A stretch of DNA of 18,616 nt from a virus (taxonomy: Duplodnaviria; Heunggongvirae; Uroviricota; Caudoviricetes), in IMG/VR virus record IMGVR_UViG_2711768037_000018, positions 1-18,616 of that record, one strand, 5' to 3'. The stretch's first letter is position 1, and every line of letters begins with the position of its first letter. Both the position numbers and the translations under genes were made by a program. Below, in pieces: positions 686-15,295 of the stretch. Below the pieces are notes generated by a model that saw nothing but the letters and a program-made list of their open reading frames with translations, was not told the DNA's origin and made no database searches.

Positions 686-711
686 ATAAAAAAGCCCCGC
701 GAATGCGAGGC
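686..711 (-). terminator. Rho-independent terminator downstream of Rz
   Basis: On minus strand: GCCUCGC-AUUC-GCGGGGC stem-loop (one G-U pair) followed by UUUUUU. Confidence 0.5.
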
Positions 712-885
712 TAAATCCTGGTATTTGTAATGACTGGCTCTTATCTCAACGCAGCCCCTTACCGCGCGCCAGATGCTCAATATCAAGCATCAGCAATGAG
801 ATGTTTAATCTGGATTCACTCCAGAAGTGATCACCACCCTGTCTACAGAGCCAGATGTGAAGGATGATGAGTAAAATTATCGCTA

Positions 886-1353: not shown

Positions 1354-1826
1354 ACCTCAATCTCTCTGACCGTTCCGCCAGCCTCTTTGAATTTTGCAAT
1401 CAGGTTGTCAGCCTTATGCTCGAACTGACCATAACCAGCACCCGGCAGTGAAGCCCAGATATTGCTGCAACGGTCAATTGCCTGACGAATATCACCGCGA
1501 TCAATCATCGGTAAAGCGCCACGCTCTTTAATCTGCTGCAATGCCACAGCGTCCTGGCTTTTCGGAGAGAAGTCTTTCAGGCCAAGCTGCTTACGATAGG
1601 CATCCCACCAACGGGAAAGAAGCTGGTAGCGCCCGGCTGCTGTTGATTTGAGTTTTGGGTTTAGCGTGACAAGTTTGCGAGGGTGATCGGAGTAATCAGT
1701 GAATAGCTCTCCGCCTACAATGACGTCATAACCATGATTTCTGGTTTTCTGACGTCCGTTATCAGTTCCCTCTGACCACGCCAGCATATCGAGGAACGCC
1801 TTACGTTGATTATTGATTTCCACCAT
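1350..1826 (-). CDS. R: Endolysin R (lytic transglycosylase)
   Basis: 158 aa [39 protein letters not shown]..., essentially lambda R as recalled. Confidence 0.95.
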
Positions 1827-2133
1827 CTTCTACTCCGGCTTTTTTAGCAGCGAAGCGTTTGATAAGCGAACCAATCGAGTCAGTACCGATGTAGCCGATG
1901 AACACGCTCGTTATATAAGCGAGATTGCTACTTAGTCCGGCGAAGTCGAGAAGGTCACGAATGAACCAGGCGATAATGGCGCACATCGTTGCGTCGATTA
2001 CTGTTTTTGTAAACGCACCGCCATTATATCTGCCGCGAAGGTACGCCATTGCAAACGCAAGGATTGCCCCGATGCCTTGTTCCTTTGCCGCGAGAATGGC
2101 GGCTAACAGGTCATGTTTTTCTGGCATCTTCAT
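1810..2133 (-). CDS. S: Holin/antiholin S (class I holin with dual start)
   Basis: 107 aa starting [10 protein letters not shown] (Met1/Met3 dual-start motif of lambda S107/S105); overlaps R start. Confidence 0.95.
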
Positions 2134-2424
2134 GTCTTACCCCCAATAAGGGGATTTGCTCTATTTAATTAGGAATAAGGTCGATTACTGATAGAACAAA
2201 TCCAGGCTACTGTGTTTAGTAATCAGATTTGTTCGTGACCGATATGCACGGGCAAAACGGCAGGAGGTTGTTAGCGCAACCTCTTGCCACCCGCTTTCAC
2301 GAAGCCAGCCATTGAGCTGGTTTTCTTTTATGCAAAGCACACCGCACCGTAGCCACAGCGGATAAGGTGATTATTTTTGTCTGTCTGGTATTTGGTTTGA
2401 TGTGCTTTCAGAAAGGCCGTGCTT

Positions 2425-2463
2425 AAAACGCAAAAAGCCCCGAGCTATTAACTCAGGGCTTTA
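2425..2463 (-). terminator. tR'-like intrinsic terminator about 30-60 nt downstream of the pR' start
   Basis: Minus-strand RNA: GCCCUGAG-UUAAUAG-CUCGGGGC (8-bp stem, one G-U) followed by UUUUUGCGUUUU. Confidence 0.6.
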
Positions 2464-2495
2464 TTTAACGAGTGCATTTATCCATCGTTGAGTCA

Positions 2496-2524
2496 AATTT
2501 ACCCAATTTTATTCAATAAGTCAA
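2496..2524 (-). promoter_or_regulatory. Late promoter pR' with Q-utilisation (qut) region
   Basis: Minus strand reads TTGACT-N17-TAAATT followed by TGACTCAACGATGG, matching lambda pR' -35/-10 and the initial transcribed pause region as recalled; about 78 nt downstream of the Q stop. Confidence 0.7.
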
Positions 2525-2566
2525 TATTATGCCGTTAATATGTTGCCATCCGTGGCAATCATGCTG

Positions 2567-3190
2567 CTAACGTGTGACCGTATTCAAAATGCTGTCTGCG
2601 ATTGACTCTTCTTTGTGGCATTGCACCACCAGAGCGTCATACAGCGGCTTAACAGTGCGTGACCAGGTGGGTTGGGTAAGATTTGGGATTAGCATCGTCA
2701 CAGCGCGATATGCGGCGCTTGCTGGCATCCTTGAATAGCCGACACCTTTGCATCTTCCGCATTCTTTCTCAACAACTCTCCCCCACTGCTCTGTTTTTGC
2801 TATATCAACCGCACGGCCTGTACCGTGACAATCTCTGCATCTTGCGCCAGGCGTCGCGGCACTACGGCAATAATCCGCATAAGCGAATGTTGCGAGCACT
2901 TGCAGTACCTTTGCCTTAGTATTTCCTTCAAGCTTTGCCACACCACGGTATTTCCCCGATACCTTGTGTGCAAATTGCATCAGATAGTTGATAGCTTTTT
3001 GTTTGTCATTCTGGCTGAGTTCGTGCTTGCCGCAGAATGCAGCCATACCGAATCCGGCTTGTGATTGCGCCATCCCCATAGCAGCCATCACATCAGTACC
3101 GGAAAGAGAGTCAGAAGCCGTGGCCCGTGGTGAGTCGCTCATCATCGGGCTTTTTGGCGAATGAAATTTAGCTACGCTTTCGAGTCTCAT
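2567..3190 (-). CDS. Q: Late gene antiterminator Q
   Basis: 207 aa MRLESVAKFHSPKSPMMSDSPRATASDSL..., near-identical to lambda Q as recalled, including the Cys-rich zinc-binding region. Confidence 0.95.
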   Translation of the reverse strand: MRLESVAKFHSPKSPMMSDSPRATASDSLSGTDVMAAMGMAQSQAGFGMAAFCGKHELSQNDKQKAINYLMQFAHKVSGKYRGVAKLEGNTKAKVLQVLATFAYADYCRSAATPGARCRDCHGTGRAVDIAKTEQWGRVVEKECGRCKGVGYSRMPASAAYRAVTMLIPNLTQPTWSRTVKPLYDALVVQCHKEESIADSILNTVTR

Positions 3191-3375
3191 CGTCTTCCCC
3201 TCTTGCCCTGTTTGACCATCAGGACGCCGTTAACTATTACATGACGCTCGCCTTTGCTGTCTCGGTTGTACTTGAGCACTGTTCCTCTTGCGCAGGAAAG
3301 CATCCTCGCCACTTCGGTCTGATTGCCTCGTGTCTGGATAAGAAGCTCTGGTATCGTTTGAATTGTGGCGTTCAT
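3187..3375 (-). CDS. ninH: NinH-like small DNA-binding protein
   Basis: 62 aa; NQTEVAR-L-C-RGTV-KY ... H-IVN-VLMV pattern matches lambda NinH; ATGA start/stop overlap with rusA and Q. Confidence 0.75.
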   Translation of the reverse strand: MNATIQTIPELLIQTRGNQTEVARMLSCARGTVLKYNRDSKGERHVIVNGVLMVKQGKRGRR

Positions 3376-3734
3376 GCGTTCTCCAGTTCGGTGATTTTTA
3401 TTCCAAGCCGTCCGCCTGGTACTTTCACACCACGAATTACGCGAATGTCATCGAATTGCTCGTCGTCTTCCGCAAATCCGGCATGGATAAGGGAGTCGAG
3501 TAAACCCTTCAGGATGTTATCTAGGTCGCGGCGGCGGGAGTCTGGAACGTCTGCGATTACTTTGATGCGGAGTCGTGATTTGGTGAAAATATCTAACTTG
3601 AGTTGGTGGATGATTTGCTGAACGTCTTTTCGGTATTTCTGGCCTTTATCGCTGATGTAGTATTGGCTTCCCCGTCTTCGCCAGTAGGTATTCACCGACG
3701 GCGGGTATGGAAGCACAAACTGATATTCGTTCAT
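3372..3734 (-). CDS. rusA: Holliday junction resolvase RusA
   Basis: 120 aa; LPYPPSVN..., RRRDLDN and AGF..DD motifs characteristic of the RusA family. Confidence 0.9.
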   Translation of the reverse strand: MNEYQFVLPYPPSVNTYWRRRGSQYYISDKGQKYRKDVQQIIHQLKLDIFTKSRLRIKVIADVPDSRRRDLDNILKGLLDSLIHAGFAEDDEQFDDIRVIRGVKVPGGRLGIKITELENA

Positions 3735-4021
3735 GACTTAATCTTCCCCTCCTTCAGCAGTATCGCCTGCGTCCTGATCACGCCTTCGAGGTGGTAAAGT
3801 CTGGCGTCTTTGTTGTCGAGGTTATGGGTGCGTCGGTCGATCTCCGCGTGGCAGTCACTACAAGCCCATGCGCCGATCAGGTCGTCAGGCTTCATTCCCG
3901 TTCCGCAAATTCCAGCCATCCGGTAATGTGCCAGAACTGTAGTTTCAGGATTGCCATTGCATACGCCGTAAATACGTACCTGGCATTCTCTGTTGCGCGC
4001 TTCTTTGCGCAGGTTAGCCAT
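3731..4021 (-). CDS. ybcO: YbcO-like DUF1364 protein (predicted metal-binding nuclease)
   Basis: 96 aa MANLRKEARNRECQVRIYGVCNGNPETTVLAH...CSDCHAEIDRR; resembles E. coli DLP12 YbcO, which also sits directly upstream of rusA. Confidence 0.8.
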   Translation of the reverse strand: MANLRKEARNRECQVRIYGVCNGNPETTVLAHYRMAGICGTGMKPDDLIGAWACSDCHAEIDRRTHNLDNKDARLYHLEGVIRTQAILLKEGKIKS

Positions 4022-4743
4022 TAAGCAGCCTCCCCTGTTACTTTCAGCATTCCGTTATCGAGCAGCTTTCTGGTCAGCCACTGTTGACCACGCCCGGTGA
4101 TTTTTGTGGTGAACGATATCTGTATTCCGTGATTTGTGTTGACTGCTGTTTCTTTCACTGTGAAATAGCCGCGATCCATATATTCCTGCATTGGCACATT
4201 GCGCCGGGAACCTGAAGCAATAAGGATTTTGTGATCGCGCATCCACGCAAACAGTTTGTTTGGACCAATTCCAACAACCTTTGCAAAGTTTCCAATCAAA
4301 ATTCCACTGGCCTCGCCAACGCGATCGGCAAACTCAACTTTAGGTGCGGCAATTGCGAGCTGGTTTTCCAGTTGCATTTTCTGCTCAGCAAGGTCAGCAG
4401 CAAGGCGCAACGCTTCTGGTAGCGTTTTTGGGATATTAACCGCAGATTCTTCAAGCTCTCGCCAACGGTCAACAAGGCGAGCGGTGAATTCCGGCGACAA
4501 CTGGGCAACAACGACAATACTGTCTCGCTTACCTTGTTCGCCTTCGAAGACGTAATGCTCGTACTGAACATTGAACCCTAAGTTATTGATTCTTCCGGAA
4601 ACCTCAATTTGAGGAAGCCGGATAACACCATTTTTAGCCAGCGTTTCGATGGTACGTTTCACATTGTCATGACGCTTACCAACCAACTCAGCAATTTCAA
4701 TGCTTGTCATTTTGATGGCATTGCCATTCATTAACTCATTCAT
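4021..4743 (-). CDS. Phage antirepressor-like protein (N-terminal Rha domain + C-terminal KilAC/ANT domain)
   Basis: 240 aa; N-terminus MTSIEIAELVGKRHDNVKRTIETL (Rha signature); C-terminal region ...NFAKVVGIGPNKLFAWMRDHKILIASG... typical of KilAC domain. Occupies the position of ninG in lambda. Confidence 0.85.
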   Translation of the reverse strand: MNELMNGNAIKMTSIEIAELVGKRHDNVKRTIETLAKNGVIRLPQIEVSGRINNLGFNVQYEHYVFEGEQGKRDSIVVVAQLSPEFTARLVDRWRELEESAVNIPKTLPEALRLAADLAEQKMQLENQLAIAAPKVEFADRVGEASGILIGNFAKVVGIGPNKLFAWMRDHKILIASGSRRNVPMQEYMDRGYFTVKETAVNTNHGIQISFTTKITGRGQQWLTRKLLDNGMLKVTGEAA

Positions 4744-4906
4744 CGTCTTCTTCCTCGTACATTGAGCTATTCGGATCGCTCATCAGTTCTGCGCAGCAGT
4801 GCTCACACACGTGAACTTCCAGCACATGCAGCTTCTGACCGCAGTTAGCGCACGTTAAAGCTCGCTCGACGCTTTCTTGTTCGTAACTTCGATTTGGGTC
4901 AATCAC
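4736..4906 (-). CDS. ninF: NinF-like small Cys-rich protein (GTG start; alternative ATG at 4928-4930)
   Basis: C-terminal portion of the 153-aa track [59 protein letters not shown] matches lambda NinF; GTG preceded by GAGGAA; GTGA overlap with ninE stop. Confidence 0.75.
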   Translation of the reverse strand: MIDPNRSYEQESVERALTCANCGQKLHVLEVHVCEHCCAELMSDPNSSMYEEEDDE

Positions 4907-5079
4907 CTTGTTTTCCTCATGCGGTTCCATTTGGCCTGTAACAGCCCGTAGACATAATCGAATGTCTTTACCTGGCTTTCTGTGGGGATTGGTTTCTTGC
5001 GGGATCTGGTGCGTTTGGTAGGAGTAAAAATCAGGTTGTCTAACGCTATTTGAGTAATGCTTCGTCGCTGTATCGCCAC
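4903..5079 (-). CDS. ninE: NinE-like protein (58 aa, putative GTG start; not in ORF track)
   Basis: Hand translation of minus strand gives (V)[57 protein letters not shown], similar to lambda NinE (..RRQRRSIT..LPTKRTRNKPKPIP..VKTF..ARKTR); GGAGGA precedes the GTG with a short spacer. Confidence 0.55.
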
Positions 5080-5219
5080 ACGTCCTCCTTTTCCTGCGGT
5101 AGTGGTAACACCCCTGTTGGTGTTCTTTCACACCGGAGACACCATCGATTCCAGTAAGGTTGATTTGGTCGGAAGCGGTTATCTTCTTTGCATTCACCGC
5201 ACCGATAACATCGCATCAT
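5046..5219 (-). CDS. ninD: NinD-like zinc-ribbon protein (57 aa)
   Basis: [56 protein letters not shown]; start ATG overlaps ninB stop (ATGA); the 77-aa track ORF is an upstream extension into ninB. Confidence 0.7.
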
Positions 5220-5656
5220 GCTGCCCGGTCTCCCCATCTTGCTTTCCACTCCAGAGCCAGTCGCGCTTCGTCTGACCACTTAACGCCACGCTCTGTACCG
5301 AATGCCTGTATAAGCTCTAATAGCTCCGCAAATTCGCTTACACGCATCCTGCTGGTTGACTGGCCTATTACCACAAAGCCATTCCCGGCAAGGTTAGGAA
5401 CAACATCCTGCTGCTTTAATGCTGCGGTAAACACACACTTCCAGCTTTCTGCATCCAGCCAGCGACCATGCCATTCAACCTGACGAGAGACGTCACCAAG
5501 GCAAGCCCAAAGCTTTCGATTCTGGTCTAAGCTGCGGTTGCGTTCCTGAATGGTTACTACGATTGGTTTGGTTGGGTCTGGAAGAATTTGCTGTACCGCG
5601 TGAATAGCGTTTTGCTGATGTGCTGGAGATCGAATTTCAAAGGTTAGTTTTTTCAT
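5216..5656 (-). CDS. ninB: NinB recombination protein (Orf family)
   Basis: 146 aa from [50 protein letters not shown]..., essentially lambda NinB; SD GGGAGAGGGAAG upstream. Confidence 0.9.
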
Positions 5657-5732
5657 GACTTCCCTCTCCCCCAAATAAAAAGGCCTGCGATTACCAGCAG
5701 GCCTGTTATTAGCTCAGTGATGTAGATGGTCA

Positions 5733-7169
5733 TCAGAATCCTCCTTTCTTCTTGGACTGCGGTTCCTCACGTTCACGGCGGCGCATTTCAGCAGACTGTT
5801 GGTCTGTGTCATAAATAGCGCCATTTGCCTGAATGCAATACACCGTGCCGGTATTGCCATGACGATTGAGGCGAAGGATTAGTTCGGTTTCACCAGGAGG
5901 AACGCTGTCATCAAAAGCACCTTCACGATGGATCCCCACCCAATAATCGCAATCCTGTTCAATCTGCCCTGTATCTCGTGAGTCACTTGGTAATGGGCGT
6001 TTATTGGTTCGGCTTTCCAGTGCGCGGTTAAGCTGTGTCAGAAGCACAACAACGCAATCAAGCTCTTTGGCAAGGTTCTTCAGTCCTTTGGTGATCATGC
6101 CGTAAGCAAGGTCGTTGCGATCGGCCTTTTCAGCGGTCATTAGTGTCAGGTAATCGACCAGAATCATGCCAACACATCCTTTTTCTCGCTTGATTCGACG
6201 GCTTTCGCTGACGATTTGAGCCAGAGATAATCCCGGCGTGTCGTCGATGTAAAGCAGGTCGATTTCACTCAAGCGATTGGCTGTTTCGATCGCCCTGTTG
6301 AAGTCACCATCGTAATCACCCTGATAGCCGTCATCAGCGTCATTTGTCGCCGGAAGGTAAAAAATATTCGGGTTAACACCTGACTTCTGTCCTACCAGTT
6401 TTTCCAGTATCTGGTCACCTGGCATTTCAAGGCTGAACATCAGAGCGGGCTTTTTCTCATGCACTGCGCAGTTGATTGCCATCTGGCTGTATAGGGTTGT
6501 CTTGCCCATCTTAGGGCGAGCGCCAATGACAAACAGAGAGCCTTTCACCAGGCCTTTCGGTGACAGCATCCTGTCCAGCGATGGGATCCCTGTGCTCATT
6601 CCTCGTTGTTCGCCTGACGGGTCAAATCGCTTCTCAAGGTCGCTAACCCAGTCTTCCATGACCTCACCAAATGAGCGAAGGCCGCGACGCGATCCGGTTT
6701 TTGCATGGTCTGTCAGTTGCGTGAAAATCGCCTGAATAGCTTCGTACTTCTGCGTTGCAGTCATTCCGTTGCGGGAATAGAGCAATTCCGTCGCTTCAGT
6801 CATGCGGTTGATGGCGTAGCGTTCCATTGCGGTTTCACGAACCTGCATTGCATAGGCAACGATGTTTGCTGCGCTTGGCGTGTTCTTTGCGATCTCAGCG
6901 ATATAAGCAAAACCTCCAACAGACGCCGTTAACGATTTGCGCTCCAGTTCATCGAAAAGCGTCAGCCCATCTACTGGCTTTTGCTCCCGGTGCATTCTGG
7001 TTATTTCTTCGAAAAGGATTTTGTGTGGTCGGCTGTAAAATGAATCAGGCTTCAGCATCGCCAGAACTTTCCGGACGCGCTCACTGCTGTCATCATCCAG
7101 AAGCAATCCACCAATCACCGCCTGCTCTGCCTCGATGCTATGGGGCGGCGCATAAAAATTATCGGTCAT
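5733..7169 (-). CDS. Replicative DNA helicase, DnaB family (P22 gene 12-like)
   Basis: About 478 aa from ATG 7167-7169; Walker A GARPKMGKTT, DnaB-like N-terminal domain (SIEAEQAVIGGLL) and RecA-like core; the track start at 7184 is a GTG extension. Confidence 0.9.
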   Translation of the reverse strand: MTDNFYAPPHSIEAEQAVIGGLLLDDDSSERVRKVLAMLKPDSFYSRPHKILFEEITRMHREQKPVDGLTLFDELERKSLTASVGGFAYIAEIAKNTPSAANIVAYAMQVRETAMERYAINRMTEATELLYSRNGMTATQKYEAIQAIFTQLTDHAKTGSRRGLRSFGEVMEDWVSDLEKRFDPSGEQRGMSTGIPSLDRMLSPKGLVKGSLFVIGARPKMGKTTLYSQMAINCAVHEKKPALMFSLEMPGDQILEKLVGQKSGVNPNIFYLPATNDADDGYQGDYDGDFNRAIETANRLSEIDLLYIDDTPGLSLAQIVSESRRIKREKGCVGMILVDYLTLMTAEKADRNDLAYGMITKGLKNLAKELDCVVVLLTQLNRALESRTNKRPLPSDSRDTGQIEQDCDYWVGIHREGAFDDSVPPGETELILRLNRHGNTGTVYCIQANGAIYDTDQQSAEMRRREREEPQSKKKGGF

Positions 7170-8049
7170 CGTGTTCACCCTCACGAACTTTCAGGTAGGT
7201 ATTATCGTTAAGCAGGAAATCAAATCCCTTTTTGTGCCAGACGGTTCCGCGTTGATGGTTTGGGCGCTCTTCGAACATCCATCGGCAATTTTCGCCTACG
7301 TAGCTCAAATAATTTCTCCAGTCCTGCATCGTGAACCCATGCCCGTCAAGCTGGCGGGTTATCACTCCGGCTTTGCGCCAGAACGTTCGGATCTGGTTTT
7401 TACGCTTGTCATTCAGTGCGCGGATTCTTGGCGCTTCAGGAAGGATTTCGTGGTAAGCATCGACAACATCCTGACAGCTAACGGAAGGTTTTTTCTTGTC
7501 AGACTTTTTGTCTGCTGTGGCACTCTCTAATACGTCAGTATTAGAGATATTATTTATATTATTGTTTATGGACAACCGTTGGACAACCGTTGGACAATCT
7601 CCGCTGAGAGCCGCGCCATTACTGGTGTTTGCGTTGGACAACCGTTGGACAACCGTTGGACAATTTTTTGCCTGAAAATCGTCATATTTAACGATTGTAA
7701 ACAGGCTAAATTTCTTCCCCATCGCGCAAATATTAAGCATCCCTTTCGACTCAAAAGTCCGTAATAAGCTCCGAACTTTGTTGTCGGGGATGAATGTTTC
7801 TCTGACCAGCGACGGGCGTCCAGTTATCATCTGACCGCGATCAACAGTTATCGGACCGATATCCGTATTGACGACAGTAGATTCGTGATTAGCCTTGAGG
7901 ATTAAGTGAAGCCAAAGATGTACTGCCTGAGAGTCCTTATAGAGCCTGCTGTCCATAAACTGGCGGTGTATAGAGACATACCCCATACTGGATGCCTCCT
8001 GATGTTGTACAGGGTTATGCCTGTAATCAGCTAACTTAACGACGCCCAT
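7159..8049 (-). CDS. Replication initiation protein (lambda O / P22 gp18 functional analogue) containing the origin iterons; alternative start ATG 7984-7986
   Basis: Lies between cII and the helicase; iteron cluster plus AT-rich tract in the middle of the ORF (translated as repeated CPTVVQRLS), as in lambda ori within O; both candidate ATGs have AGGAG-type SDs. Confidence 0.8.
   Translation of the reverse strand: MGVVKLADYRHNPVQHQEASSMGYVSIHRQFMDSRLYKDSQAVHLWLHLILKANHESTVVNTDIGPITVDRGQMITGRPSLVRETFIPDNKVRSLLRTFESKGMLNICAMGKKFSLFTIVKYDDFQAKNCPTVVQRLSNANTSNGAALSGDCPTVVQRLSINNNINNISNTDVLESATADKKSDKKKPSVSCQDVVDAYHEILPEAPRIRALNDKRKNQIRTFWRKAGVITRQLDGHGFTMQDWRNYLSYVGENCRWMFEERPNHQRGTVWHKKGFDFLLNDNTYLKVREGEHDDR
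7521..7663 (-). repeat. Putative replication origin: two clusters of 11-bp direct repeats (GGACAACCGTT x2.5 each) followed on the gene strand by an AT-rich tract
   Basis: Repeats at 7570-7597 and 7636-7663; AT-rich 7521-7569; arrangement mirrors lambda ori (iterons then AT-rich region inside the initiator gene). Confidence 0.7.
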
Positions 8050-8198
8050 GTTTCACTCCTGCTTTGGCTAGTCTGTAAACACCAACAAGGCGCTCTGCGA
8101 ACGCCCTGTTATTTGCTGCGGCTACCACTAATCCCTCAGGTGAATCAGGGTGTCGAATCTCTTCTTTTTCCTGGTATTTCTTACGACGTTTTGTCATA
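8036..8198 (-). CDS. Hypothetical small basic protein (53 aa), between cII and the initiator gene
   Basis: Hand-translated MTKRRKKYQEKEEIRHPDSPEGLVVAAANNRAFAERLVGVYRLAKAGVKHGRR; AGGAG 5 nt upstream of ATG; no recognised homology. Confidence 0.3.
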
Positions 8199-8231
8199 AT
8201 TACTCCTGTGGATTGATCCAGTCTTTCTACA

Positions 8232-8510
8232 TCAGGCCTCGAAGAATTCGCCGTTCTTCGGGGCTTTTTCTTTTGTCAGCATTCTGGCTACTTTCTTAGC
8301 CAGTTCCGCCAACTCCTCGTCTTCAACACCCCACTCCAGCACAGCCAGAAGCATGGCCATCTTTGGGATAAAGCTGTCTTTCCATCGCGAAATTTGCGAT
8401 TCATTGATCCCTAATGCATCAGCAACCTTTCGCTGACCACGTACAGCAATTCGATTTAGGATGTTGCTTGTAATTGCATTCGCTTTCTTGCGAGTACTTG
8501 TAAGTTGCAT
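8232..8510 (-). CDS. cII: CII transcriptional activator
   Basis: 92 aa from internal ATG: MQLTSTRKKANAITSNILNRIAVRGQRKVADALGINESQISRWKDSFIPKMAMLLAVLEWGV..., aligns with lambda CII (..SQISRWKRDWIPKFSMLLAVLEWGV..). Confidence 0.85.
   Translation of the reverse strand: MQLTSTRKKANAITSNILNRIAVRGQRKVADALGINESQISRWKDSFIPKMAMLLAVLEWGVEDEELAELAKKVARMLTKEKAPKNGEFFEA
8236..8274 (+). terminator. Intrinsic terminator on the strand antisense to the cII 3' end (oop-RNA-like terminator)
   Basis: Plus strand: GCCTCGAAGAA-TTCGCCG-TTCTTCGGGGC (11-bp stem with one G-U) followed by TTTTTCTTTT; sits just inside the cII C-terminal codons, as lambda oop does. Confidence 0.6.
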
Positions 8511-8520
8511 ATGTAAGTAT
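8488..8520 (+). promoter_or_regulatory. pRE-like CII-dependent promoter (TTGC-N6-TTGT at -35, AAGTAT -10)
   Basis: TTGCGAGTACTTGTAAGTTGCATATGTAAGTATTTCC closely resembles lambda pRE (TTGCGTTTGTTTGCACGAACCATATGTAAGTATTTCC) as recalled; reads toward cro/cI. Confidence 0.55.
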
Positions 8521-8568
8521 TTCCTTAACAAATAAGAAGTTATGCGCACCAACTGATGCGCGTTGTAT

Positions 8569-8612
8569 TCCCGCATTTCGGCGGGAATGAGGACCATGAC
8601 TGTTAAAGAGCG
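8569..8612 (-). promoter_or_regulatory. nutR: boxA (CGCTCTTTAACA) + boxB hairpin (TCCCGC-CGAAAT-GCGGGA)
   Basis: Between cro and cII on the minus strand; boxA matches the consensus; boxB is identical to the hairpin in nutL. Confidence 0.7.
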
Positions 8613-8619
8613 GTGTTAC

Positions 8620-8844
8620 TTATGCTGCCTGATTCGGTTTTGGAAACAGGTGTGGCAAATCGGGGCGAATTTCGTAAGCCTTGATCTGCCCTCCAGTGGC
8701 GTTAACGATGGCGGTAACTTTCTCTGGAGAGACCAACCCGCCTTTCAGCCATTTGTGTACTGCTGGCTGCGTTACACCACACTTGTCGGCAAGGCGCTTT
8801 TGGCTACCGACAATTTTCAAGGCTCGTTGAATTACTAAATTCAT
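8620..8844 (-). CDS. cro: Cro-like repressor, YdaS-type HTH (74 aa from third in-frame ATG)
   Basis: HTH segment QKRLADKCGVTQPAVHKWLKG and ...ATGGQIKAYEIRPDL resemble the YdaS/Cro family; divergent from cI across an operator region; AGAGG 7 nt upstream of the chosen ATG. Confidence 0.8.
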   Translation of the reverse strand: MNLVIQRALKIVGSQKRLADKCGVTQPAVHKWLKGGLVSPEKVTAIVNATGGQIKAYEIRPDLPHLFPKPNQAA

Positions 8845-8877
8845 GAGCATACCTCTTGTGGTCATTACTTATAACCA

Positions 8878-8906
8878 AAGATAACTCAAGTTATAAAAAA
8901 TAGCAA
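8878..8906 (-). promoter_or_regulatory. pR promoter (TTGCTA-N17-TATCTT on minus strand)
   Basis: -10 overlaps operator 8881-8894, -35 abuts operator 8906-8919, as with lambda pR/OR1/OR2. Confidence 0.5.
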
Positions 8907-8943
8907 TAACCTTTGTTATTTTACTTTGGATAACCGTAGTTAT
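8881..8943. promoter_or_regulatory. OR operator cluster: three 14-bp inverted repeats ATAAC-N4-GTTAT
   Basis: ATAACTCAAGTTAT (8881-8894), ATAACCTTTGTTAT (8906-8919), ATAACCGTAGTTAT (8930-8943), centres about 24 bp apart between divergent cro and cI; pRM-like -10 TAGATT at 8943-8948 precedes the cI ATG by about 7 nt. Confidence 0.65.
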
Positions 8944-8955
8944 AGATTTGTGAGT

Positions 8956-9663
8956 ATGAAAACATTCGCAGAAAGACTAAATGCAGCCATGAGCTCAGCA
9001 GGGGTATCACAATCACAGCTTGCTGACATGGTTGGAATATCTCAGCCAGCCATACAGAAGATGTCGTCCGGTAAAACAAACGGATCTCGCAAGATGGTTG
9101 AATTAGCCAATGCTTTAAAAGTGCGTCCTGAATGGCTTAGTTCTGGTATTGGTGAAATGAGGGATGGTGCACATGAAGAACCATCCAATGTCCGTGAGTC
9201 ATCTTTAAAAGCTGTGGTATGGGAAGACATTAAAAGAAACGATGACGAGTTTGTTGCGTTGCCTCTTCTTAACGTTTCGCTTTCAGCTGGAAGCGGTAGC
9301 TGCGAGCTAGAGGAATCATCGGAGTTCTCTTTGGTTTTCAGAAAGCACTATCTGAAAAAGATGGGAGTATCAGAAAGATCAGCCAAGCTAGTTAGGGTTG
9401 TAGGGCAAAGCATGGAACCAACGCTTCACGATGGCGATGTTGTTGGTGTTAACACGCAAGATACCACAATCAGAGATGGTAAAACCTACGCTATTTGCCA
9501 GTCTGATTTGTTACGAGTAAAAACATTAATCGCCACCCCTACATCGGTGATAATCAGATCAATAAATCGCGAAGAGTACCCGGATGAAGTAATGGATAGA
9601 GATGAATTTCATGAAACCGTAAGGATTATTGGCAGAGTATTCTGGTCGTCTCATAGTTGGTAA
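8956..9663 (+). CDS. cI: CI-type prophage repressor (N-terminal HTH + C-terminal S24 LexA-like autopeptidase domain)
   Basis: 235 aa from ATG 8956 (track start 8926 is a TTG extension); HTH region SQSQLADMVGISQPAIQKM; C-terminal GQSMEPT (catalytic Ser) and downstream Lys; apparently leaderless start like lambda cI from pRM. Confidence 0.9.
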   Translation: MKTFAERLNAAMSSAGVSQSQLADMVGISQPAIQKMSSGKTNGSRKMVELANALKVRPEWLSSGIGEMRDGAHEEPSNVRESSLKAVVWEDIKRNDDEFVALPLLNVSLSAGSGSCELEESSEFSLVFRKHYLKKMGVSERSAKLVRVVGQSMEPTLHDGDVVGVNTQDTTIRDGKTYAICQSDLLRVKTLIATPTSVIIRSINREEYPDEVMDRDEFHETVRIIGRVFWSSHSW

Positions 9664-9703
9664 CCGATAATCAGAAGAAGACTTACGGAAGTGCGGAGGG
9701 ATA

Positions 9704-10000
9704 ATGGAATTTCTGATAGTTTTTGTTGTTGTTTTGGTCATCATTCTTTTTGTTTTGCTAAGCATTAGCAAAAAGCTATCTCAAATGATTGAACATAGCT
9801 CTAATCGCGCAAAAGAAGAAGAGCATCTAATTGATATAAAAGAGATTCTCTCTGATATAAAAATCACATTAGATGAAATAAAATACACAACAGATCTAAT
9901 TGAACAGTATAAAATACCAACCCCAAACGAGAGAAAAGCAATAGATCAATATCGTATTGACTTAGAAATCGACGAAATGCTAAGCAAAAGAAAAGACTAA
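9704..10000 (+). CDS. Hypothetical single-pass membrane protein (98 aa), AT-rich, co-oriented directly downstream of cI
   Basis: N-terminal TM helix EFLIVFVVVLVIILFVLLSI then charged helical region; GGAGGG SD; strongly AT-rich codon usage compared with neighbours; followed by an intrinsic terminator. Confidence 0.7.
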   Translation: MEFLIVFVVVLVIILFVLLSISKKLSQMIEHSSNRAKEEEHLIDIKEILSDIKITLDEIKYTTDLIEQYKIPTPNERKAIDQYRIDLEIDEMLSKRKD

Positions 10001-10004
10001 AAAC

Positions 10005-10034
10005 ACCCGGCCTCAGCGCCGGGTTTTCTTTTCC
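10005..10034 (+). terminator. Intrinsic terminator ending the cI transcription unit
   Basis: CCCGGC-CTCAGC-GCCGGG hairpin followed by TTTTCTTTTCC. Confidence 0.7.
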
Positions 10035-10197
10035 TGCCGTTCACCACCCAATCAACCATCCTCATCATAGACAAGCATCAAGCCAAAGGTAACACCTTCA
10101 CCCCGCACGTAAGCCCTCAAACACCAATCAATCAGCAACATTTACAAAAATAAAATACCTTTGTTATCCATCACTTATAACTTATTTACCATAAAAT

Positions 10198-10239
10198 ATA
10201 AATTAGGTTATTGACCACACCTATAACCTAGGTTATCTT
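10198..10239 (+). promoter_or_regulatory. pL promoter with OL operators (TTGACC-N17-TATCTT; operators ATAAATTAGGTTAT and ATAACCTAGGTTAT)
   Basis: Same ATAAC-N4-GTTAT operator type as OR; perfect palindrome at 10223-10236 overlaps spacer/-10; located upstream of nutL and N. Confidence 0.5.
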
Positions 10240-10284
10240 TAAGCCATCAGCAGGACGCTGGTAGCCAAACGGAACAGATTGGCA

Positions 10285-10326
10285 GGCTCTTTAACATTGA
10301 TGGGATTGTCCCGCCGAAATGCGGGA
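10285..10326 (+). promoter_or_regulatory. nutL: boxA (GGCTCTTTAACA) + boxB hairpin (TCCCGC-CGAAAT-GCGGGA)
   Basis: About 110 nt upstream of N; boxB identical to nutR. Confidence 0.7.
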
Positions 10327-10433
10327 ACCAAAGAGTAGTTGGCTTTGGGGTGACGTGAAGTGCAGCTGCACGACGGCAACCGGAAGATAAGCACCCGGCG
10401 CGTCACCGCCAAAGTCAATCATCGGAGGTCAAC

Positions 10434-10706
10434 ATGACAGTAGTCATTACATATCTGGCTGACGATAACGCCAGAAATCGCCGCAGAGCACGCAGACAGG
10501 CTCAACGTGAACAGGCAATGCAAGAGCAGCGACTGGCACGAAAAATTGCGCTAAAGCTCTCTGGTTGCGTCAGAGCAGATAAAGCAGCATCACTCGGAAG
10601 CCTTCGCTGCAAGAAGGCAGATGAATGCAGTGGAAGTATTTGCCTGCCAAACGTAGCCATTTACGCGGCAGGCTACCGGAAATCAAAACAACTGACGGCG
10701 AGGTAA
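10434..10706 (+). CDS. N: N-type antitermination protein (P22 gene 24-like)
   Basis: 90 aa; arginine-rich motif DNARNRRRARRQAQREQ; C-terminus LPNVAIYAAGYRKSKQLTAR resembles the P22 gp24 C-terminus as recalled; GGAGG SD. Confidence 0.85.
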   Translation: MTVVITYLADDNARNRRRARRQAQREQAMQEQRLARKIALKLSGCVRADKAASLGSLRCKKADECSGSICLPNVAIYAAGYRKSKQLTAR

Positions 10707-10709
10707 GTG

Positions 10710-10934
10710 ATGAATCAGACATACATTCCATCATGCTTGAGAAATCTGCCAAAGCAGAAAGCAAAGCCCCGCAAGCAAGCCATAAAGGACGCTAAGGCAG
10801 AGGTTATTGATCAAGCAATACAATTGCTCAGGGAGGAGTTAAGAAGTGGCAAGCTAGAAGGAATGATGATGCCCTATCAGCGCGGATATCTATCGGCGAT
10901 TAGTAAGTTGGAAGTATTGAAGAGTGAATTATGA
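10710..10934 (+). CDS. Hypothetical protein (74 aa)
   Basis: ORF immediately after N (N stop TAA, then ATG with GAGG SD); basic, helical; no recognised family. Confidence 0.5.
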   Translation: MNQTYIPSCLRNLPKQKAKPRKQAIKDAKAEVIDQAIQLLREELRSGKLEGMMMPYQRGYLSAISKLEVLKSEL

Positions 10935-10996
10935 GCTATCTGGAATTTCCGGATGGTTCATTGTTTTGGCAGCAAACCACTTATTTGAGGTGAGAT

Positions 10997-11467
10997 ATGA
11001 CAATATCATGGAGCGTACCTTTTCCTGAATCAGAAACTGAACATGATGGAATGCCTGTTTTCTGGAGATTCCAGGCGACAGTTGAAGAAGATGGAATCAA
11101 AATATTCGCACTTCAATATATAGCTTTTCATCAGACAGAGCATTATGCATGGTTGGTTCCTGCGCATTGGATTGTTAATTTTAAACCAGCACCAAATCAG
11201 TGGTTACAGGAATGGAAACAAAAGAGAAATAGATATGCAATTAAGAAAGTAGCAAAAAATGCAGAAAGATCTTTTGCATTCCCAACGAAGAAACTTGCCA
11301 TTGAAAGTTTATTGCGCCGGAAGAAATACCATTTAATGAGAATCAAACAAGATTTGGCTGTTGTATCAACTCTTGTTGATGGGATGAAGAATATTGATAC
11401 ATCAACACCAGATATTGAATATAACTTTGGACACAACCAAGAAACAGAAAACTGGGTGTTTTATTAG
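10997..11467 (+). CDS. Hypothetical protein (156 aa), AT-rich
   Basis: Clean ORF with GAGGTGAG SD; AT-rich composition; no recognised motif; occupies the ral/sieB position between N and cIII. Confidence 0.65.
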   Translation: MTISWSVPFPESETEHDGMPVFWRFQATVEEDGIKIFALQYIAFHQTEHYAWLVPAHWIVNFKPAPNQWLQEWKQKRNRYAIKKVAKNAERSFAFPTKKLAIESLLRRKKYHLMRIKQDLAVVSTLVDGMKNIDTSTPDIEYNFGHNQETENWVFY

Positions 11468-11571
11468 TACGAATAAGCACTGTGTATTCATTCCAACGAG
11501 TGAATACACGGAGCAATGTCGCTCGTAACTAAACAGGAGCCGACTTGTTCTGATTATTGGAAATCTTCTTT

Positions 11572-11599
11572 GCCCTCCAGTGTGAGGGCAATTTTTTTT
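11572..11599 (+). terminator. Intrinsic terminator (tL-like) inside the early-left operon
   Basis: GCCCTC-CAGTGT-GAGGGC hairpin followed by AATTTTTTTT. Confidence 0.65.
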
Positions 11600-11612
11600 G
11601 ACGGAGTAAACG

Positions 11613-11861
11613 ATGATAAAAACTGATTATCCTGCAGAACTTAAACAAAAAGTAATAACAGCAATTAAATGCTCTTTTATCTCATGTCGTACAGATGAAG
11701 AACGACATGTCGTTGAGTGTGCAATTGTCGAGTTTCTCACAGCGATGGAATTTACCGCTGCAGAATCAATAGATGTATTAAAGCAATCAGACGGAAATGA
11801 TATTGAAACGGATGATGTTATTGACCGACTAATAAAATCATTCGAAGAAGAAATAGAGTAG
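11613..11861 (+). CDS. Hypothetical small acidic protein (82 aa)
   Basis: GGAG SD; about 20 Asp/Glu versus 8 Lys/Arg; followed by a GC-rich hairpin (about 11862-11885). Confidence 0.6.
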   Translation: MIKTDYPAELKQKVITAIKCSFISCRTDEERHVVECAIVEFLTAMEFTAAESIDVLKQSDGNDIETDDVIDRLIKSFEEEIE

Positions 11862-11944
11862 CCGCCTGAGCGCGGCTTTACCGCATACCAATAATGCTTC
11901 ACGAGAGGCATTTTCGTTATGCAATCAAATATAAGGAGTTACCC

Positions 11945-12079
11945 ATGATGCACTTTCAGCTCGCGGGTAGCGGCGTCATGTCCGCTTTCTACCCGCACGA
12001 ATCTGAATTATCACGCCGAGTTAAACAATTAATCAGAGCAGCAAAGAAACAACTGGAGGCGTTATGCGCAATGAAATAG
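11945..12079 (+). CDS. cIII: CIII-like protein (putative FtsH inhibitor, 44 aa)
   Basis: MMHFQLAGSGVMSAFYPHESELSRRVKQLIRAAKKQLEAL resembles lambda CIII (MQYAIAGWPVAGCPSESLLERITRKLRDGWKRLIDIL); AAGGAG SD 6 nt upstream; the track ORF from 11894 is an upstream extension. Confidence 0.6.
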   Translation: MMHFQLAGSGVMSAFYPHESELSRRVKQLIRAAKKQLEALCAMK

Positions 12080-12215
12080 CCATCAATCACCAGATGCTTC
12101 GTGCAGCACAAAACAAAGCAGTAATAGCCAGATTTATTGGTGATTCCAAAATGTGGCTTGAAGCAAATAAAGCGATGAAATCAGCGATCAACATTCCGTG
12201 GTATCGCAGGAAATG
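12063..12215 (+). CDS. kil: Kil-like host-killing protein (50 aa, not in ORF track)
   Basis: MRNEIAINHQMLRAAQNKAVIARFIGDSKMWLEANKAMKSAINIPWYRRK; ARFIGDSKMW resembles lambda Kil ATFIGDEKMF; GGAGG SD; directly follows cIII as in lambda. Confidence 0.6.
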
Positions 12216-12297
12216 AGTTTTACAGATAACTGGTCAGACGAAGAATTCATTCGTCAGATGAACAAAATGCTCAATCAGCACAAAGAACAGGAGAAAG

Positions 12298-12609
12298 ATG
12301 ATGATTCTGACTCTGAATGATAAGCGTGAAATATCGCAAATCATCGCAAGTTTTACCGATGATGATTACGAACGAATCAACAGTGAAGTTGATCGCCTCT
12401 GCAAACGTTGCGACCCAATAAGCGAAATGCTTCGCTCATATAAACCAGATGAACACACTAAGGACGCTATCGACTGGCTGGAAGATGATGACTGTAACTA
12501 TCAGGAAAAAGCCGCTGAATGGTTCTGGGATGCAATAACCGAAAGAGTTAAGGCTGAATATGCCTTCGCAATATTCAAGCGCAGACACATTTTTGGAGAA
12601 GCAGCATGA
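12298..12609 (+). CDS. Hypothetical protein (103 aa) immediately upstream of recT
   Basis: AGGAGA SD; stop overlaps recT start (ATGA); acidic, Cys-containing; no recognised family. Confidence 0.6.
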   Translation: MMILTLNDKREISQIIASFTDDDYERINSEVDRLCKRCDPISEMLRSYKPDEHTKDAIDWLEDDDCNYQEKAAEWFWDAITERVKAEYAFAIFKRRHIFGEAA

Positions 12610-13508
12610 GCAATATCGTTGAATTCGTTAAACAGCAGGAGCAGTTATTCTGCGGAGCATTGACTGAACAGACGGTGACATGGGCTAAGGAAAGCCAGTT
12701 TGCAATTCAGTATTTCCAGAAAAACGATTACCTGGCTAAAACGGCACTGGCAAATCCAACCAGCGCACAGAACGCCATCATCAATGTTGCGGCGATCGGC
12801 ATCACCTTAAACCCGGCCAGCAAACTTGCTTATCTAGTTCCGCGCGACGGCATGGTTTGCCTTGATATCAGCTATATGGGATTACTTCACCTTGCACAGT
12901 CGACAGGATCAATTAAGTGGGGGCAATGCAAACTGGTGTACTCAAACGACACCTATGAATCAAACGGCCTTGATTCAGCACCAACCCACAAATACAACGC
13001 ATTTGGTGAGCGAGGCTCTATTGTTGGTGGTTATTGTACGGTTAAAACAGCAGATGGTGACTACCTCACTGAAGAAATGAGTCTGGCAGAAATTAAAGCT
13101 GTGGAAGCAACGAGCAAGGCAAAGAATGGACCGTGGAAGACATTCTGGGAAGAGATGGCGCGTAAAACAATAGTTAAACGCGCCAGCAAATACTGGCCTA
13201 AAGCCCAGCGACTGGATAATGCCATTCACCTGCTTAACGAAGATGAAGGTATGCATCAGGAACCAGTTATGCCGCACAAATCAGAGGAAGATATCCGCGA
13301 AGATGAACGGAAACGCCAGCAGGAAATAATGGATAAAGCACAACTTCTTTGCGATGAAATGGCTCAGGCAGAAAACATGGATGATTTGAAGCGATATTTT
13401 GCAGAAGCATATCGCCTGACATCTGGAATGAAATTGCAGCAGAACGTACAAGCCATTTACATAGAATGCAAAGCGAAACTGGAGGTTGCCAGTGAGCAAA
13501 CTGTATGA
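12606..13508 (+). CDS. recT: RecT-family single-strand annealing recombinase
   Basis: 300 aa; ...NPASKLAYLVPRDG... and NGPWKTFWEEMARKTIVKRASKYWP closely parallel E. coli RecT (NGPWVTHWEEMAKKTAIRRLFKYLP). Confidence 0.9.
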   Translation: MSNIVEFVKQQEQLFCGALTEQTVTWAKESQFAIQYFQKNDYLAKTALANPTSAQNAIINVAAIGITLNPASKLAYLVPRDGMVCLDISYMGLLHLAQSTGSIKWGQCKLVYSNDTYESNGLDSAPTHKYNAFGERGSIVGGYCTVKTADGDYLTEEMSLAEIKAVEATSKAKNGPWKTFWEEMARKTIVKRASKYWPKAQRLDNAIHLLNEDEGMHQEPVMPHKSEEDIREDERKRQQEIMDKAQLLCDEMAQAENMDDLKRYFAEAYRLTSGMKLQQNVQAIYIECKAKLEVASEQTV

Positions 13509-13974
13509 AATAGCCAATGAATACGCAAAGCTGATGGATTCAGATTTAGAGCCAGAGATGATTGCTGACACAATAGAAGGCATGGAAGGAGAATTTACCG
13601 ATAAAATAGAGCAACTTCTTGCCATTATTAAAAATGAATCTGGTTATGCTGAACGCCTCAAGGACGAGGCAAAGTCACTGAATGAACGAGCAGCAGTAAT
13701 TCAAAATAAGATTGATAGCATTATGGCATATATAGCGTCATCGCTTGAAATGGTTGGCAAGAAAAAGATTCGAGCAGGTATTCACCAGGTAACAATCCGC
13801 AAACCGTCAGAAACTGTAGAAATCATCGACTCAAGCGCCATTCCTCCTGAATACGTTGAGTTTGAAACGACAATTAAAGCCGACAAGTTGGCAATCAAAC
13901 ACCAACTAAAAGCAGGAATAAATATCCCCGGCGCTCAACTCAAAGTTGGGAAACCTTCACTTCTTATCAAATAA
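13492..13974 (+). CDS. Hypothetical coiled-coil protein (160 aa from GTG), possibly Siphovirus-Gp157-like
   Basis: GGAGG SD 6 nt before GTG; overlaps recT stop; helical/charged composition; family assignment is from memory and uncertain. Confidence 0.55.
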   Translation: MSKLYEIANEYAKLMDSDLEPEMIADTIEGMEGEFTDKIEQLLAIIKNESGYAERLKDEAKSLNERAAVIQNKIDSIMAYIASSLEMVGKKKIRAGIHQVTIRKPSETVEIIDSSAIPPEYVEFETTIKADKLAIKHQLKAGINIPGAQLKVGKPSLLIK

Positions 13975-13985
13975 CGGTATCGCCT

Positions 13986-14300
13986 ATGAAAAAGACTCCA
14001 TGGGAGAAATGGGAAGTCGATTTCTTGCGCGAAGTAGCGGCGACAATGCCAGTTGAAGTTATCGCTGAAAAACTGGAAAGGACTGAAAAAGCAGTTATGG
14101 CGAAAGCAACAAGGATTGGCGCTGACATTGTTAGCCGACTTCGTGGAAGACGCTGGACAAGAGCCGAAGTATCACTTTTCGGTAAGTTCTCCGCAGAAGA
14201 AATAGCAATTGCAACCTGCCGCTCAATTTATTCAGTAAGAGCTATGCGATACAAGCTAAAAAAACTCGATGAAGAAAGAGCAGGCATACGAATAAATTAA
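13986..14300 (+). CDS. Hypothetical protein (104 aa) with two tandem ~45-aa repeats, possible DNA-binding
   Basis: Repeats WEKWEVDFLREVAATMPVEVIAEKL... and RWTRAEVSLFGKFSAEEIAIATCRS...; basic C-terminus. Confidence 0.55.
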   Translation: MKKTPWEKWEVDFLREVAATMPVEVIAEKLERTEKAVMAKATRIGADIVSRLRGRRWTRAEVSLFGKFSAEEIAIATCRSIYSVRAMRYKLKKLDEERAGIRIN

Positions 14301-14316
14301 CATGGAGTAATTAACA

Positions 14317-14595
14317 ATGAAGCTAAACATCGACCTCGGAAAATACGTTATTACCGGAACCAAGCACGATCTGATTCTTAGCGAAAGAGGAATTATCAAA
14401 GAAGGCGAGAATGCAGGGAAAGAAACACTAAGTCGTATCGGTTATTACAGCAAGTTTGAGCATCTGGTTAAAGAGTTATGCAACCGTGAAATCATGTTAT
14501 CTCAGGCGCAGACGCTACAGGATATTCAGCAGCATATCTGGACTTTAGGTGAGTCACTTAGCATGGCTATTGACCAGTTCGTGGAGAGTAAATAA
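14317..14595 (+). CDS. Hypothetical protein (92 aa)
   Basis: Clean ORF with GGAG upstream; no recognised family. Confidence 0.55.
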
Positions 14596-14759
14596 TGAGA
14601 GGACTTGCATACAATCCCGGCATTCTTCCGGCAGAAATGATTATTCGCCAACGCGTAAAGCCAATGCCATCGAGAGAGGAATTGCTTAAAAGAAATAGTT
14701 TCGGTTCTGTTAATGACAACAAATATCTGAATGCAATGTGGCGGAGTGGGAAGAAATGA
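14595..14759 (+). CDS. Hypothetical small protein (54 aa, not in ORF track)
   Basis: Hand-translated [59 protein letters not shown] overlap with the upstream ORF and ATGA overlap with the downstream ORF; GGAGAG SD. Confidence 0.3.
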
Positions 14760-15295
14760 AACAAATGTCACTAATTGAGATGGATGGTTTTCTGAAAGGT
14801 AAATGCATCCCAAGTGATTTAAAGGTTAACGAAACAAACGCTGAATATCTGGTGCGTAAGTTCGGTGAACTTGAATCAAAACTAGAAACGGCGTTGCGTG
14901 AGTGTCGTTCTGCTGGAATCACGATTGATAACCTTGAGGCCAAGTGCGCGGCGCTTACGGCAGAGAATGCGGGGATGAAGTCTGATATTCCACTTGGTGC
15001 CATCGAGAATGGCATAGCGTTTGCAGACCGTTTAGAGAATTACCAGTTCGAGTGTGAAGGCGGAAATCTAAACATGTGCAGTGATTGGCAGGAGTTTCGC
15101 CGTTGCTTCGAGTACTTATCTGAATGGGCAATGCATAGCCAGACAGAGCACCCAGCCACCGACGCCTTCATGGCTGAAGTTCGGGCGCAGGGCGTGGAGA
15201 TGTTCGGTCAGTACCATAACTTCAGCGAAAAGCTATTCATCCAGAAAGAGGCACAGAAATTCGCCGCCCAGCTTCGCAAAGGAGGCAAACAGTGA
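14756..15295 (+). CDS. Hypothetical protein (179 aa from ATG; track start 14738 is GTG)
   Basis: Coiled-coil N-terminal region and Cys-containing C-terminal region; no recognised family. Confidence 0.6.

Follow-up and report, generated by a model that had tools for sequence, protein, structure and literature searches.

The genes that phage lambda carries in its early-left (pL) operon, between the antitermination gene N and the terminator tL2a, are the closest described counterparts of the locus presented here. Lambda Ral is a small, dispensable, cysteine-rich protein produced early from pL, and SieB is encoded between N and ral by an open reading frame (ORF) of 184 amino acids (aa) that runs opposite to the pL strand and contains hydrophobic segments. 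Abc2 of P22 and HK97, which acts against RecBCD, and lambda Gam and Kil are further counterparts, namely small, dispensable proteins made early from pL that bind and neutralise host proteins. The lambda spacer between ral and ea10 encodes the Hfq-dependent small RNA LPR1/PreS, the 3′ end of which is tL2a. This RNA of about 88 nucleotides (nt), with a processed form of about 68 nt, is produced in the lytic but not in the lysogenic cycle and activates the translation of dnaN, and its deletion leads to less lambda DNA replication and to fewer spontaneous phage (bioRxiv 10.1101/2024.10.31.621285). We analysed the corresponding region in an 18,616-nt stretch of DNA from a virus of the Caudoviricetes (IMG/VR record IMGVR_UViG_2711768037_000018, positions 1–18,616; the whole stretch is referred to as the window). 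What is found there is the N-proximal portion of a lambdoid prophage's pL operon, arranged in the order pL, nutL, N, ORF74, ORF156, conserved hairpin, LPR1/PreS ending in tL2a, ORF82 and cIII. ORF74 and ORF156, the two genes located between N and tL2a, are best explained overall as conserved early accessory genes of this slot, both of them orphans and each independent of the other, a reading to which we assign a probability of roughly 55%. The elements concerned are as follows.

10710–10934, plus strand: ORF74, a basic protein of 74 aa, phrog_5305 (ORF call and PHROG match).
10931–10961, plus strand: 14-bp hairpin overlapping the ORF74 stop codon, followed by the weak U tract UGUUUUGG (−20.3 kcal/mol, z = −4.4).
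10997–11467, plus strand: ORF156, a protein of 156 aa, phrog_1636 (ORF call and PHROG match).
11482–11509, plus strand: 12-bp hairpin with the loop CAAC (nine perfect pairs, 12 bp if one G-U is included; −18.8 kcal/mol, z = −6.3).
11510–11599, plus strand: homologue of LPR1/PreS with tL2a as its 3′ end (by identity to lambda; 5′ end estimated from the published length).
11570–11599, plus strand: intrinsic terminator tL2a, with the stem at 11570–11591 and T8 at 11592–11599 (terminator scan).

A preliminary description of this DNA had placed a basic 74-aa ORF and an AT-rich 156-aa ORF here, and both were borne out. ORF74 has an isoelectric point (pI) of 9.7, with 14 lysines and arginines versus eight aspartates and glutamates, and ORF156 has a GC content of 36.1% versus 45.8% for the window. 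Each protein is matched from end to end by a PHROG family of unknown function, ORF74 by phrog_5305 (E = 4.6e-38; residues 1–74, 71 of 71 profile positions) and ORF156 by phrog_1636 (E = 3e-111; residues 1–156, 156 of 156 positions). Full-length homologues with 55–98% identity are distributed across the Enterobacterales, those of ORF74 being found in Enterobacter, Citrobacter and Leclercia and those of ORF156 in Escherichia, Cronobacter, Pectobacterium, Brenneria and Rosenbergiella, and many columns are invariant in both alignments. Internal stop codons were seen in none of nine ORF74 copies and in none of 28 ORF156 copies. Among 21 distinct ORF156 alleles taken from the fetched loci, 23 variant codons were synonymous and 15 nonsynonymous. 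The synonymous fraction is 0.61, compared with 0.19 expected at random; ORF156 is under purifying selection. Given the end-to-end PHROG matches, the full-length homologues, the lack of internal stops and the synonymous excess in ORF156, the two ORFs are beyond chance, and both are genuine conserved genes. Both also have good Shine-Dalgarno sites: the ATG of ORF74 lies 4 nt past the stop codon of N with GAGG 5 nt upstream of it, and GAGGTGA is present upstream of the ATG of ORF156.

These observations bear on whether the ORFs could be decaying or functionless passengers, kept merely by linkage to N and to tL2a/PreS. Their dispensability across lambdoid phages and the lack of a known function would agree with such a status. 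The uninterrupted frames, the synonymous excess of ORF156, the good Shine-Dalgarno sites on both genes, the full-length conservation at 55–65% identity in other genera and the wider family of 130–155-aa proteins with shared motifs described below all speak against it, and we regard it as extremely improbable.

ORF156 is 98% identical to gp45 of HK97 and equals L0079 of 933W and the ORF after N in H-19B. These members of phrog_1636 (98–99% protein identity, 156 aa) are all encoded directly upstream of the tL2a block, and in HK97 gp45 is the sole gene between N and the terminator. Prevalence was counted in 5426 complete E. coli genomes, 598 of which (about 11%) carry ORF156; the gene is also found in 88 phage records and in most of the Stx1- and Stx2-converting phages sampled. 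ORF74 is rarer (149 genomes and 44 phage records, including mEp213, mEpX2, mEp506, ECP1 and phi367) but reaches non-lambdoid coliphages. Its relatives in non-lambdoid phages, among them Bas81, swi2, Sasha, D10, Henu8, PS-1 and Vibrio phages, are often located near the genome end, and several of these phages we take to be virulent. Every database record labels these genes 'hypothetical' or, in the case of ORF156, just 'Gp45'. ORF156 is thus a common gene, carried by the model phages HK97 and 933W among others, but it is without annotation, fold match or literature.

The interval between N and tL2a was surveyed in IMG/VR contigs. The tL2a stem was present in 102 contigs, 75 of which also have N, and a panel of proteins was placed on them by tblastn. 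In the 75 contigs the interval measures between 382 and 1863 bp (median 780 bp), and its ORFs form 53 clusters that represent at least about 15 plausible genes. The two commonest occupants are Ral (23 contigs) and ORF156 (20 contigs), the former being, with lambda Ral as the tblastn query, an ORF distinct from both ORF74 and ORF156. ORF156 is usually the gene adjoining tL2a and is found with at least four types of N. ORF74, present in eight contigs, always follows N directly and is likewise combined with several N types, and in six contigs the opposite strand carries a SieB-like membrane ORF. Ral and ORF156 co-occurred in none of the contigs, whereas about six co-occurrences were expected (hypergeometric P = 1.6e-4, for 75 contigs that are not independent of each other). 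The N-to-tL2a segment is a hypervariable accessory interval, the right border of which is formed by the conserved tL2a/PreS block.

Pairwise comparisons revealed mosaic joints. Phage phi367 matches the window over 10400–10993, then has a 323-bp insertion carrying ral and matches again over 10981–11596, ral thus being located between ORF74 and ORF156. 933W has a different N, its homology being limited to 10965–11597, and in this phage as well as in HK97 ORF156 directly follows N. ECP1 contains ORF74, followed by an unrelated segment of about 205 bp that replaces 11000–11475, and is homologous again from 11476 onward. E. coli 2018-05-5CC matches 10400–11610 and diverges thereafter. The joints in phi367, 933W and ECP1 show that ORF74 and ORF156 belong to mosaic modules which are separate and independent of each other. 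The hairpin at 10931–10961 is part of the ORF74 module, as the homology to phi367 and ECP1 spans it and extends to 10993–10999. It may represent a partial terminator or a stabiliser of the mRNA 3′ end.

The preliminary description had regarded the two ORFs as a pair, set apart as a possible N-dependent accessory cassette by the hairpin and terminator after ORF156. If they were one co-inherited N-dependent cassette closed by its own hairpin and terminator, the order N-ORF74-ORF156-terminator should recur, and it does so in E. coli 2018-05-5CC (L003) and in the IMG/VR contig L054. However, the two genes occur together in only two contigs of the survey, that is in two of the 20 contigs with ORF156, and six of the eight contigs with ORF74 are without ORF156. 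Moreover, ral separates the genes in phi367, ECP1 has ORF74 without ORF156, and the segment 10400–11900 is covered to at least 80% in one piece by only one of the 5426 E. coli genomes. The terminator block, for its part, recurs at 99% identity in lambda, phage 21 and ECP1, all of which are without ORF156. The idea of a pair or cassette was therefore abandoned, there being very little probability left for it.

Two short frames near the joint deserve mention. A frame of 20 codons at 10932–10994 on the plus strand, MSYLEFPDGSLFWQQTTYLR followed by a stop codon, matches the N-terminal extension of a family of 212-aa ORFs, and this family follows ORF74 in eight other contigs (e.g. L065). The frame is a linker conserved within the ORF74 module or else a leftover from the replacement of the 212-aa gene by ORF156. 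The second frame, a 34-aa ORF at 10924–11028 annotated in the phi367 record, was rejected as spurious because it extends across the mosaic joint and the start of ORF156. Apart from the 212-aa family (eight contigs), other recurrent unannotated families of the slot encode 83–115 aa (13 contigs) or, in several cases, 62–107 aa. Members of another family of 121–149 aa (nine contigs) appear to hold a hydrophobic segment.

A perfect 9-bp-stem hairpin and an intrinsic terminator do follow ORF156, at 11482–11509 and 11570–11599, in agreement with the preliminary description. The segment 11477–11597 shows 99.2% identity over 121 nt to lambda 33925–34045, which is the spacer between ral (end 34087) and ea10 (start 33904). 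In an alignment of lambda, 933W, phage 21 and ECP1 the sequence hardly varies over the stretch that begins one base ahead of the hairpin and ends with the U tract; the hairpin itself is identical in lambda, 933W and ECP1, and one loop base is different in phage 21. A terminator is annotated at the site of tL2a in the records of phage 21 and HK97. Hairpin and terminator (11477–11599) are, by homology, the pan-lambdoid tL2a and LPR1/PreS locus. Since the same sequence also follows ral in lambda and phage 21, the slot occupied by ORF74 and ORF156 is equivalent to the ral/sieB position of lambda, as had been proposed. The locus shares with its lambda counterpart a GC-rich stem (8 bp, five of them GC pairs) with a U tail and the location, with the accessory slot before it and the next gene after it. 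It differs in the neighbouring genes, ORF156 instead of ral upstream and ORF82 instead of ea10 downstream, and in the U tract, which is T8 here and T6-A-T in lambda.

Of the 5426 E. coli genomes 2237 contain the tL2a/PreS block, as do 327 phage records, and it is kept in lambda, phage 21 and ECP1, all without ORF156. As ECP1 retains the block in the absence of ORF156, the tL2a/PreS element is not a property of this gene. Hairpin and terminator were thus likely misread as the boundary of a cassette, and the assignment is corrected here to a shared element that occurs with or without ORF156. In addition, the block probably provides the homology at which recombination swaps the genes upstream of it. 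When 88 nt are counted back from the U tract, the 5′ end of PreS falls at about position 11511, next to the hairpin at 11482–11509, which would accordingly flank PreS on its 5′ side if placed from the published length. The window as a whole matched no Rfam family, and none exists for PreS. Hfq binding, the species of about 88 and 68 nt and the activation of dnaN are experimental findings for lambda only. Annotators of Stx prophages should mark the tL2a/PreS element because it regulates host dnaN during induction.

A promoter scan of the plus strand detected no promoter-like site between 10240 and 12218, and all copies of ORF74 and ORF156 in the survey are on the pL strand. Both genes would be cotranscribed with N from pL, either in lytic growth or upon induction, and, lying on the pL strand with no promoter-like site of their own, would be silent in the repressed lysogen. 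Since they precede the first strong intrinsic terminator, they are expected to need N less than the genes past tL2a, i.e. ORF82, cIII and the recombination genes. A possible Rho-dependent site after N, equivalent to lambda tL1, is a caveat in this respect, and the hairpin at 10931–10961 might attenuate transcription into ORF156. The N-dependence formerly suggested for the two ORFs is, if anything, reversed, as it is ORF82, cIII and the genes beyond that need N. Likewise, the promoter and terminator of its own that would characterise an autonomous cassette or moron were not seen: no promoter-like site was detected, and the terminator is shared and present without ORF156.

The same data are relevant to a role in the lysogen. 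Prophage accessory slots often carry defence genes, lambda sieB sits in this very interval, the SieB-like membrane ORF is present on the opposite strand in six of the 75 contigs, and ORF156 is AT-rich, as many morons are. One or both ORFs could on these grounds be superinfection-exclusion or defence genes that protect the lysogen, analogues of SieB or Rex. However, located on the pL strand after N and without a promoter-like site of their own, both should be silenced by the repressor. No membrane or hydrophobic segment was found in either protein, nor did either give a significant PADLOC match. There was no Pfam match to SieB and no tblastn similarity to lambda SieB; ORF74 and ORF156 are dissimilar from it in being encoded on the pL strand and, as predicted, soluble. 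Furthermore, relatives occur in non-lambdoid phages, some of them believed to be virulent, in which exclusion by a lysogen makes little sense. Lysogen protection by these ORFs is therefore distinctly unlikely, and the sieB-like role considered in the preliminary description is disfavoured for the lack of a membrane segment and of a promoter-like site and for the strand, which in lambda is the opposite one.

The searches for recognisable domains were in line with the earlier remark that neither protein has a known motif. Scans of Pfam and NCBIfam returned only sub-threshold noise for ORF74 and ORF156, including no match to the Ral family of either database at E ≤ 1. The best hits in PADLOC-DB, with E of about 0.01–0.015 over 14–46 residues (PDC-S05, Cas1_II), were taken as noise, PDB sequence searches using single sequences and family profiles gave nothing below E = 0.04, and no catalytic motif was seen in either protein. 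The predicted structure of ORF74 (predicted local distance difference test, pLDDT, 85) is a two-helix hairpin behind a basic N-terminal tail; this helical hairpin is generic, and Foldseek gave no match below E = 0.9. ORF156 matched no DNA- or RNA-binding Pfam family and no solved structure. Neither of the two outcomes that the preliminary description had named as refuting it was observed: both genes are retained at this position, and the searches brought up no homologue among known non-defence proteins.

ORF156 can be divided into three parts. Residues 1–60 are acidic and beta-rich, the centre (residues 61–120), with a net charge of +13, has a helix of about 34 residues at its end, and the C-terminal tail, aromatic-acidic and invariant, reads F-x-H-N-x-E-T-x-x-W-x-F. 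A profile search among 1.84 billion representatives extended the family, which now comprises 88 proteins of 130–155 aa. These share the HET motif, an R-x-A-F ... A ... L ... R-K ... H-L-x-R pattern, the aromatic-acidic C-terminus and the basic positions, K84, K87, R91, R107, K109 and R115 being kept across the wide family. None of the 51 members scanned contains a Pfam domain, and their PHROGs are all of unknown function. In other temperate phages, distant relatives are found between genes for RecT/YqaJ/RdgC or YqaJ/SSB and the integrase gene. In one context the relative is a lone gene on the opposite strand amid structural genes, and in Pantoea phage LIET2 it is located beside a cytosine methyltransferase in a run of small genes.

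A further protein, P0097 (940 aa), matches positions 8–56 of the ORF156 profile seven times in tandem, which suggests that the N-terminal beta-hairpin region of ORF156 may be a repeat-like unit present elsewhere. A resemblance of the ORF156 segment RSFAFPTKKLAIESLLRRKK to beta-beta-alpha DNA-binding motifs of the AP2 or integrase-arm type was considered but is not claimed.

With respect to function, the reading of ORF74 and ORF156 as independent orphan accessory genes would have them act as small binding proteins that serve the phage early in infection, in the lytic cycle. This is proposed because their non-lambdoid relatives occur amid small early or accessory genes and because they have neither a membrane segment nor a catalytic motif. 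A function in the lytic cycle fits better than protection of the lysogen, as relatives are found in non-lambdoid phages, several of which are presumably virulent. The basic centre of ORF156 suggests nucleic-acid binding, and its invariant tail would be suited to docking on a partner. Ral and SieB, the known occupants of the slot, act in conflicts between phage and host or between phages, and this makes ORF74 and ORF156 well-placed candidates for counter-defence or host takeover. Counter-defence of the Ral type is our leading guess, although a tentative one, and host takeover or modulation of DNA metabolism comes next. Like Ral, the two proteins would be small, dispensable early products encoded on the same strand of the N-to-tL2a/PreS interval; there is no sequence similarity, however, and ORF156 is 2.4 times larger than Ral and has no cysteines. 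Neither protein is homologous to Abc2, Gam or Kil, and in HK97 gp45 and an Abc2 homologue are encoded in one operon.

A more specific proposal, possible but doubtful at present, is that ORF156 founds a new counter-defence family with an unseen fold, which would alternate with Ral beside tL2a and use its basic centre and tail to bind nucleic acid or a host immune protein. Distant members of this family would then be spread across phages of Proteobacteria, and ORF74, translationally coupled to N, would act as another inhibitor, independent of the first.

Alternatively, ORF156 might be a nucleic-acid-binding protein that serves the DNA metabolism or regulation of the phage itself and is not directed against host immunity. 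The +13 centre with its conserved basic positions, the distant relatives beside genes for RecT, YqaJ, RdgC or SSB or near DNA methyltransferase genes, and the location immediately before PreS, an RNA that raises host DnaN for phage replication, would be accommodated by this assignment. It is weakened by the dispensability of ORF156, which is missing from 55 of the 75 contigs and from lambda, and by the lack of a DNA- or RNA-binding match in Pfam or among structures. The neighbourhoods, too, are long, mixed runs of small genes and as such weak evidence, so that we consider this alternative rather unlikely.

Several points weigh against our reading of ORF74 and ORF156 as early lytic accessory genes with a possible role in counter-defence. 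Full-text literature searches found no functional study of either ORF, and the counter-defence guess draws solely on position, timing and analogy. The structural model of ORF156 is mediocre (pLDDT 68; predicted template modelling score 0.42), and a fold relationship may have been missed for this reason. The missing consensus sigma-70 promoter is not proof of silence in the lysogen. Moreover, Ral and ORF156 are found together in phi367 and in O111 E. coli strains; they are therefore not simple functional alternatives, and competition for the site beside tL2a may be all that keeps them apart in the survey.

The view of lambdoid genome organisation is not overturned by these results, and apart from the two orphan genes the region is ordinary. 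The flanking features are listed below.

8232–8597, minus strand: cII.
8620–8865, minus strand: cro.
8926–9663, plus strand: S24 cI repressor.
9704–10000, plus strand: membrane ORF of 98 aa at the rex (rexAB) position directly after cI, phrog_18389 (a family of unknown function).
10005–10024: bidirectional intrinsic terminator after the 98-aa ORF.
10211–10239, plus strand: pL-like promoter, TTGACC, 17-nt spacer, TATCTT (promoter scan).
10286–10326, plus strand: nutL, consisting of boxA GCTCTTTA (10286–10293) and a boxB-like hairpin (10309–10326).
10434–10706, plus strand: antitermination protein N, 90 aa, with an arginine-rich N-terminus (PF25694, E = 1.1e-15; phrog_271, E = 4e-34).
11613–11861, plus strand: ORF82, 82 aa, the first gene past tL2a, at the position of ea10 in lambda (phrog_14587, E = 9e-48).
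11894–12079, plus strand: cIII, the right-hand landmark of the slot (PF08134, E = 4.6e-30).
Further left in the operon, past cIII: RecT gene.

The pL leader from about position 10238 aligns with that of phage 21, for which the transcription start is annotated, and its boxA, GCTCTTTA, has the same sequence as the boxA-L annotated in phage 21. The boxB-like hairpin folds weakly (z = −1.75) and is assigned as boxB by its position. While the whole leader and boxA match phage 21, this hairpin is unlike that of phage 21, and N of the window is only in part similar to phage 21 N. It looks as if the arginine-rich motif and boxB had been swapped as a pair relative to phage 21.

The 98-aa ORF after cI has a hydrophobic N-terminal helix and a very low GC content (30%). 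Because it is expected to be cotranscribed with cI, it is a better candidate than ORF74 or ORF156 for an exclusion or defence gene expressed in the lysogen.

ORF82 is strongly acidic (pI 4.35; 20 aspartates and glutamates in 82 aa), which would fit an inhibitor of the DNA-mimic type. Its PHROG (14587) carries the label 'anti-restriction protein', and in the ECP1 record the gene is named 'ral'. As a clue to a Ral-type or anti-restriction function this was dropped, BLASTP against lambda Ral giving E = 16 and thus no similarity; the label seems to be either a misannotation or an untested conjecture. In the surveyed contigs, ea10 is far less common past tL2a than a 322-aa protein or a 103-aa 'superinfection exclusion protein'.

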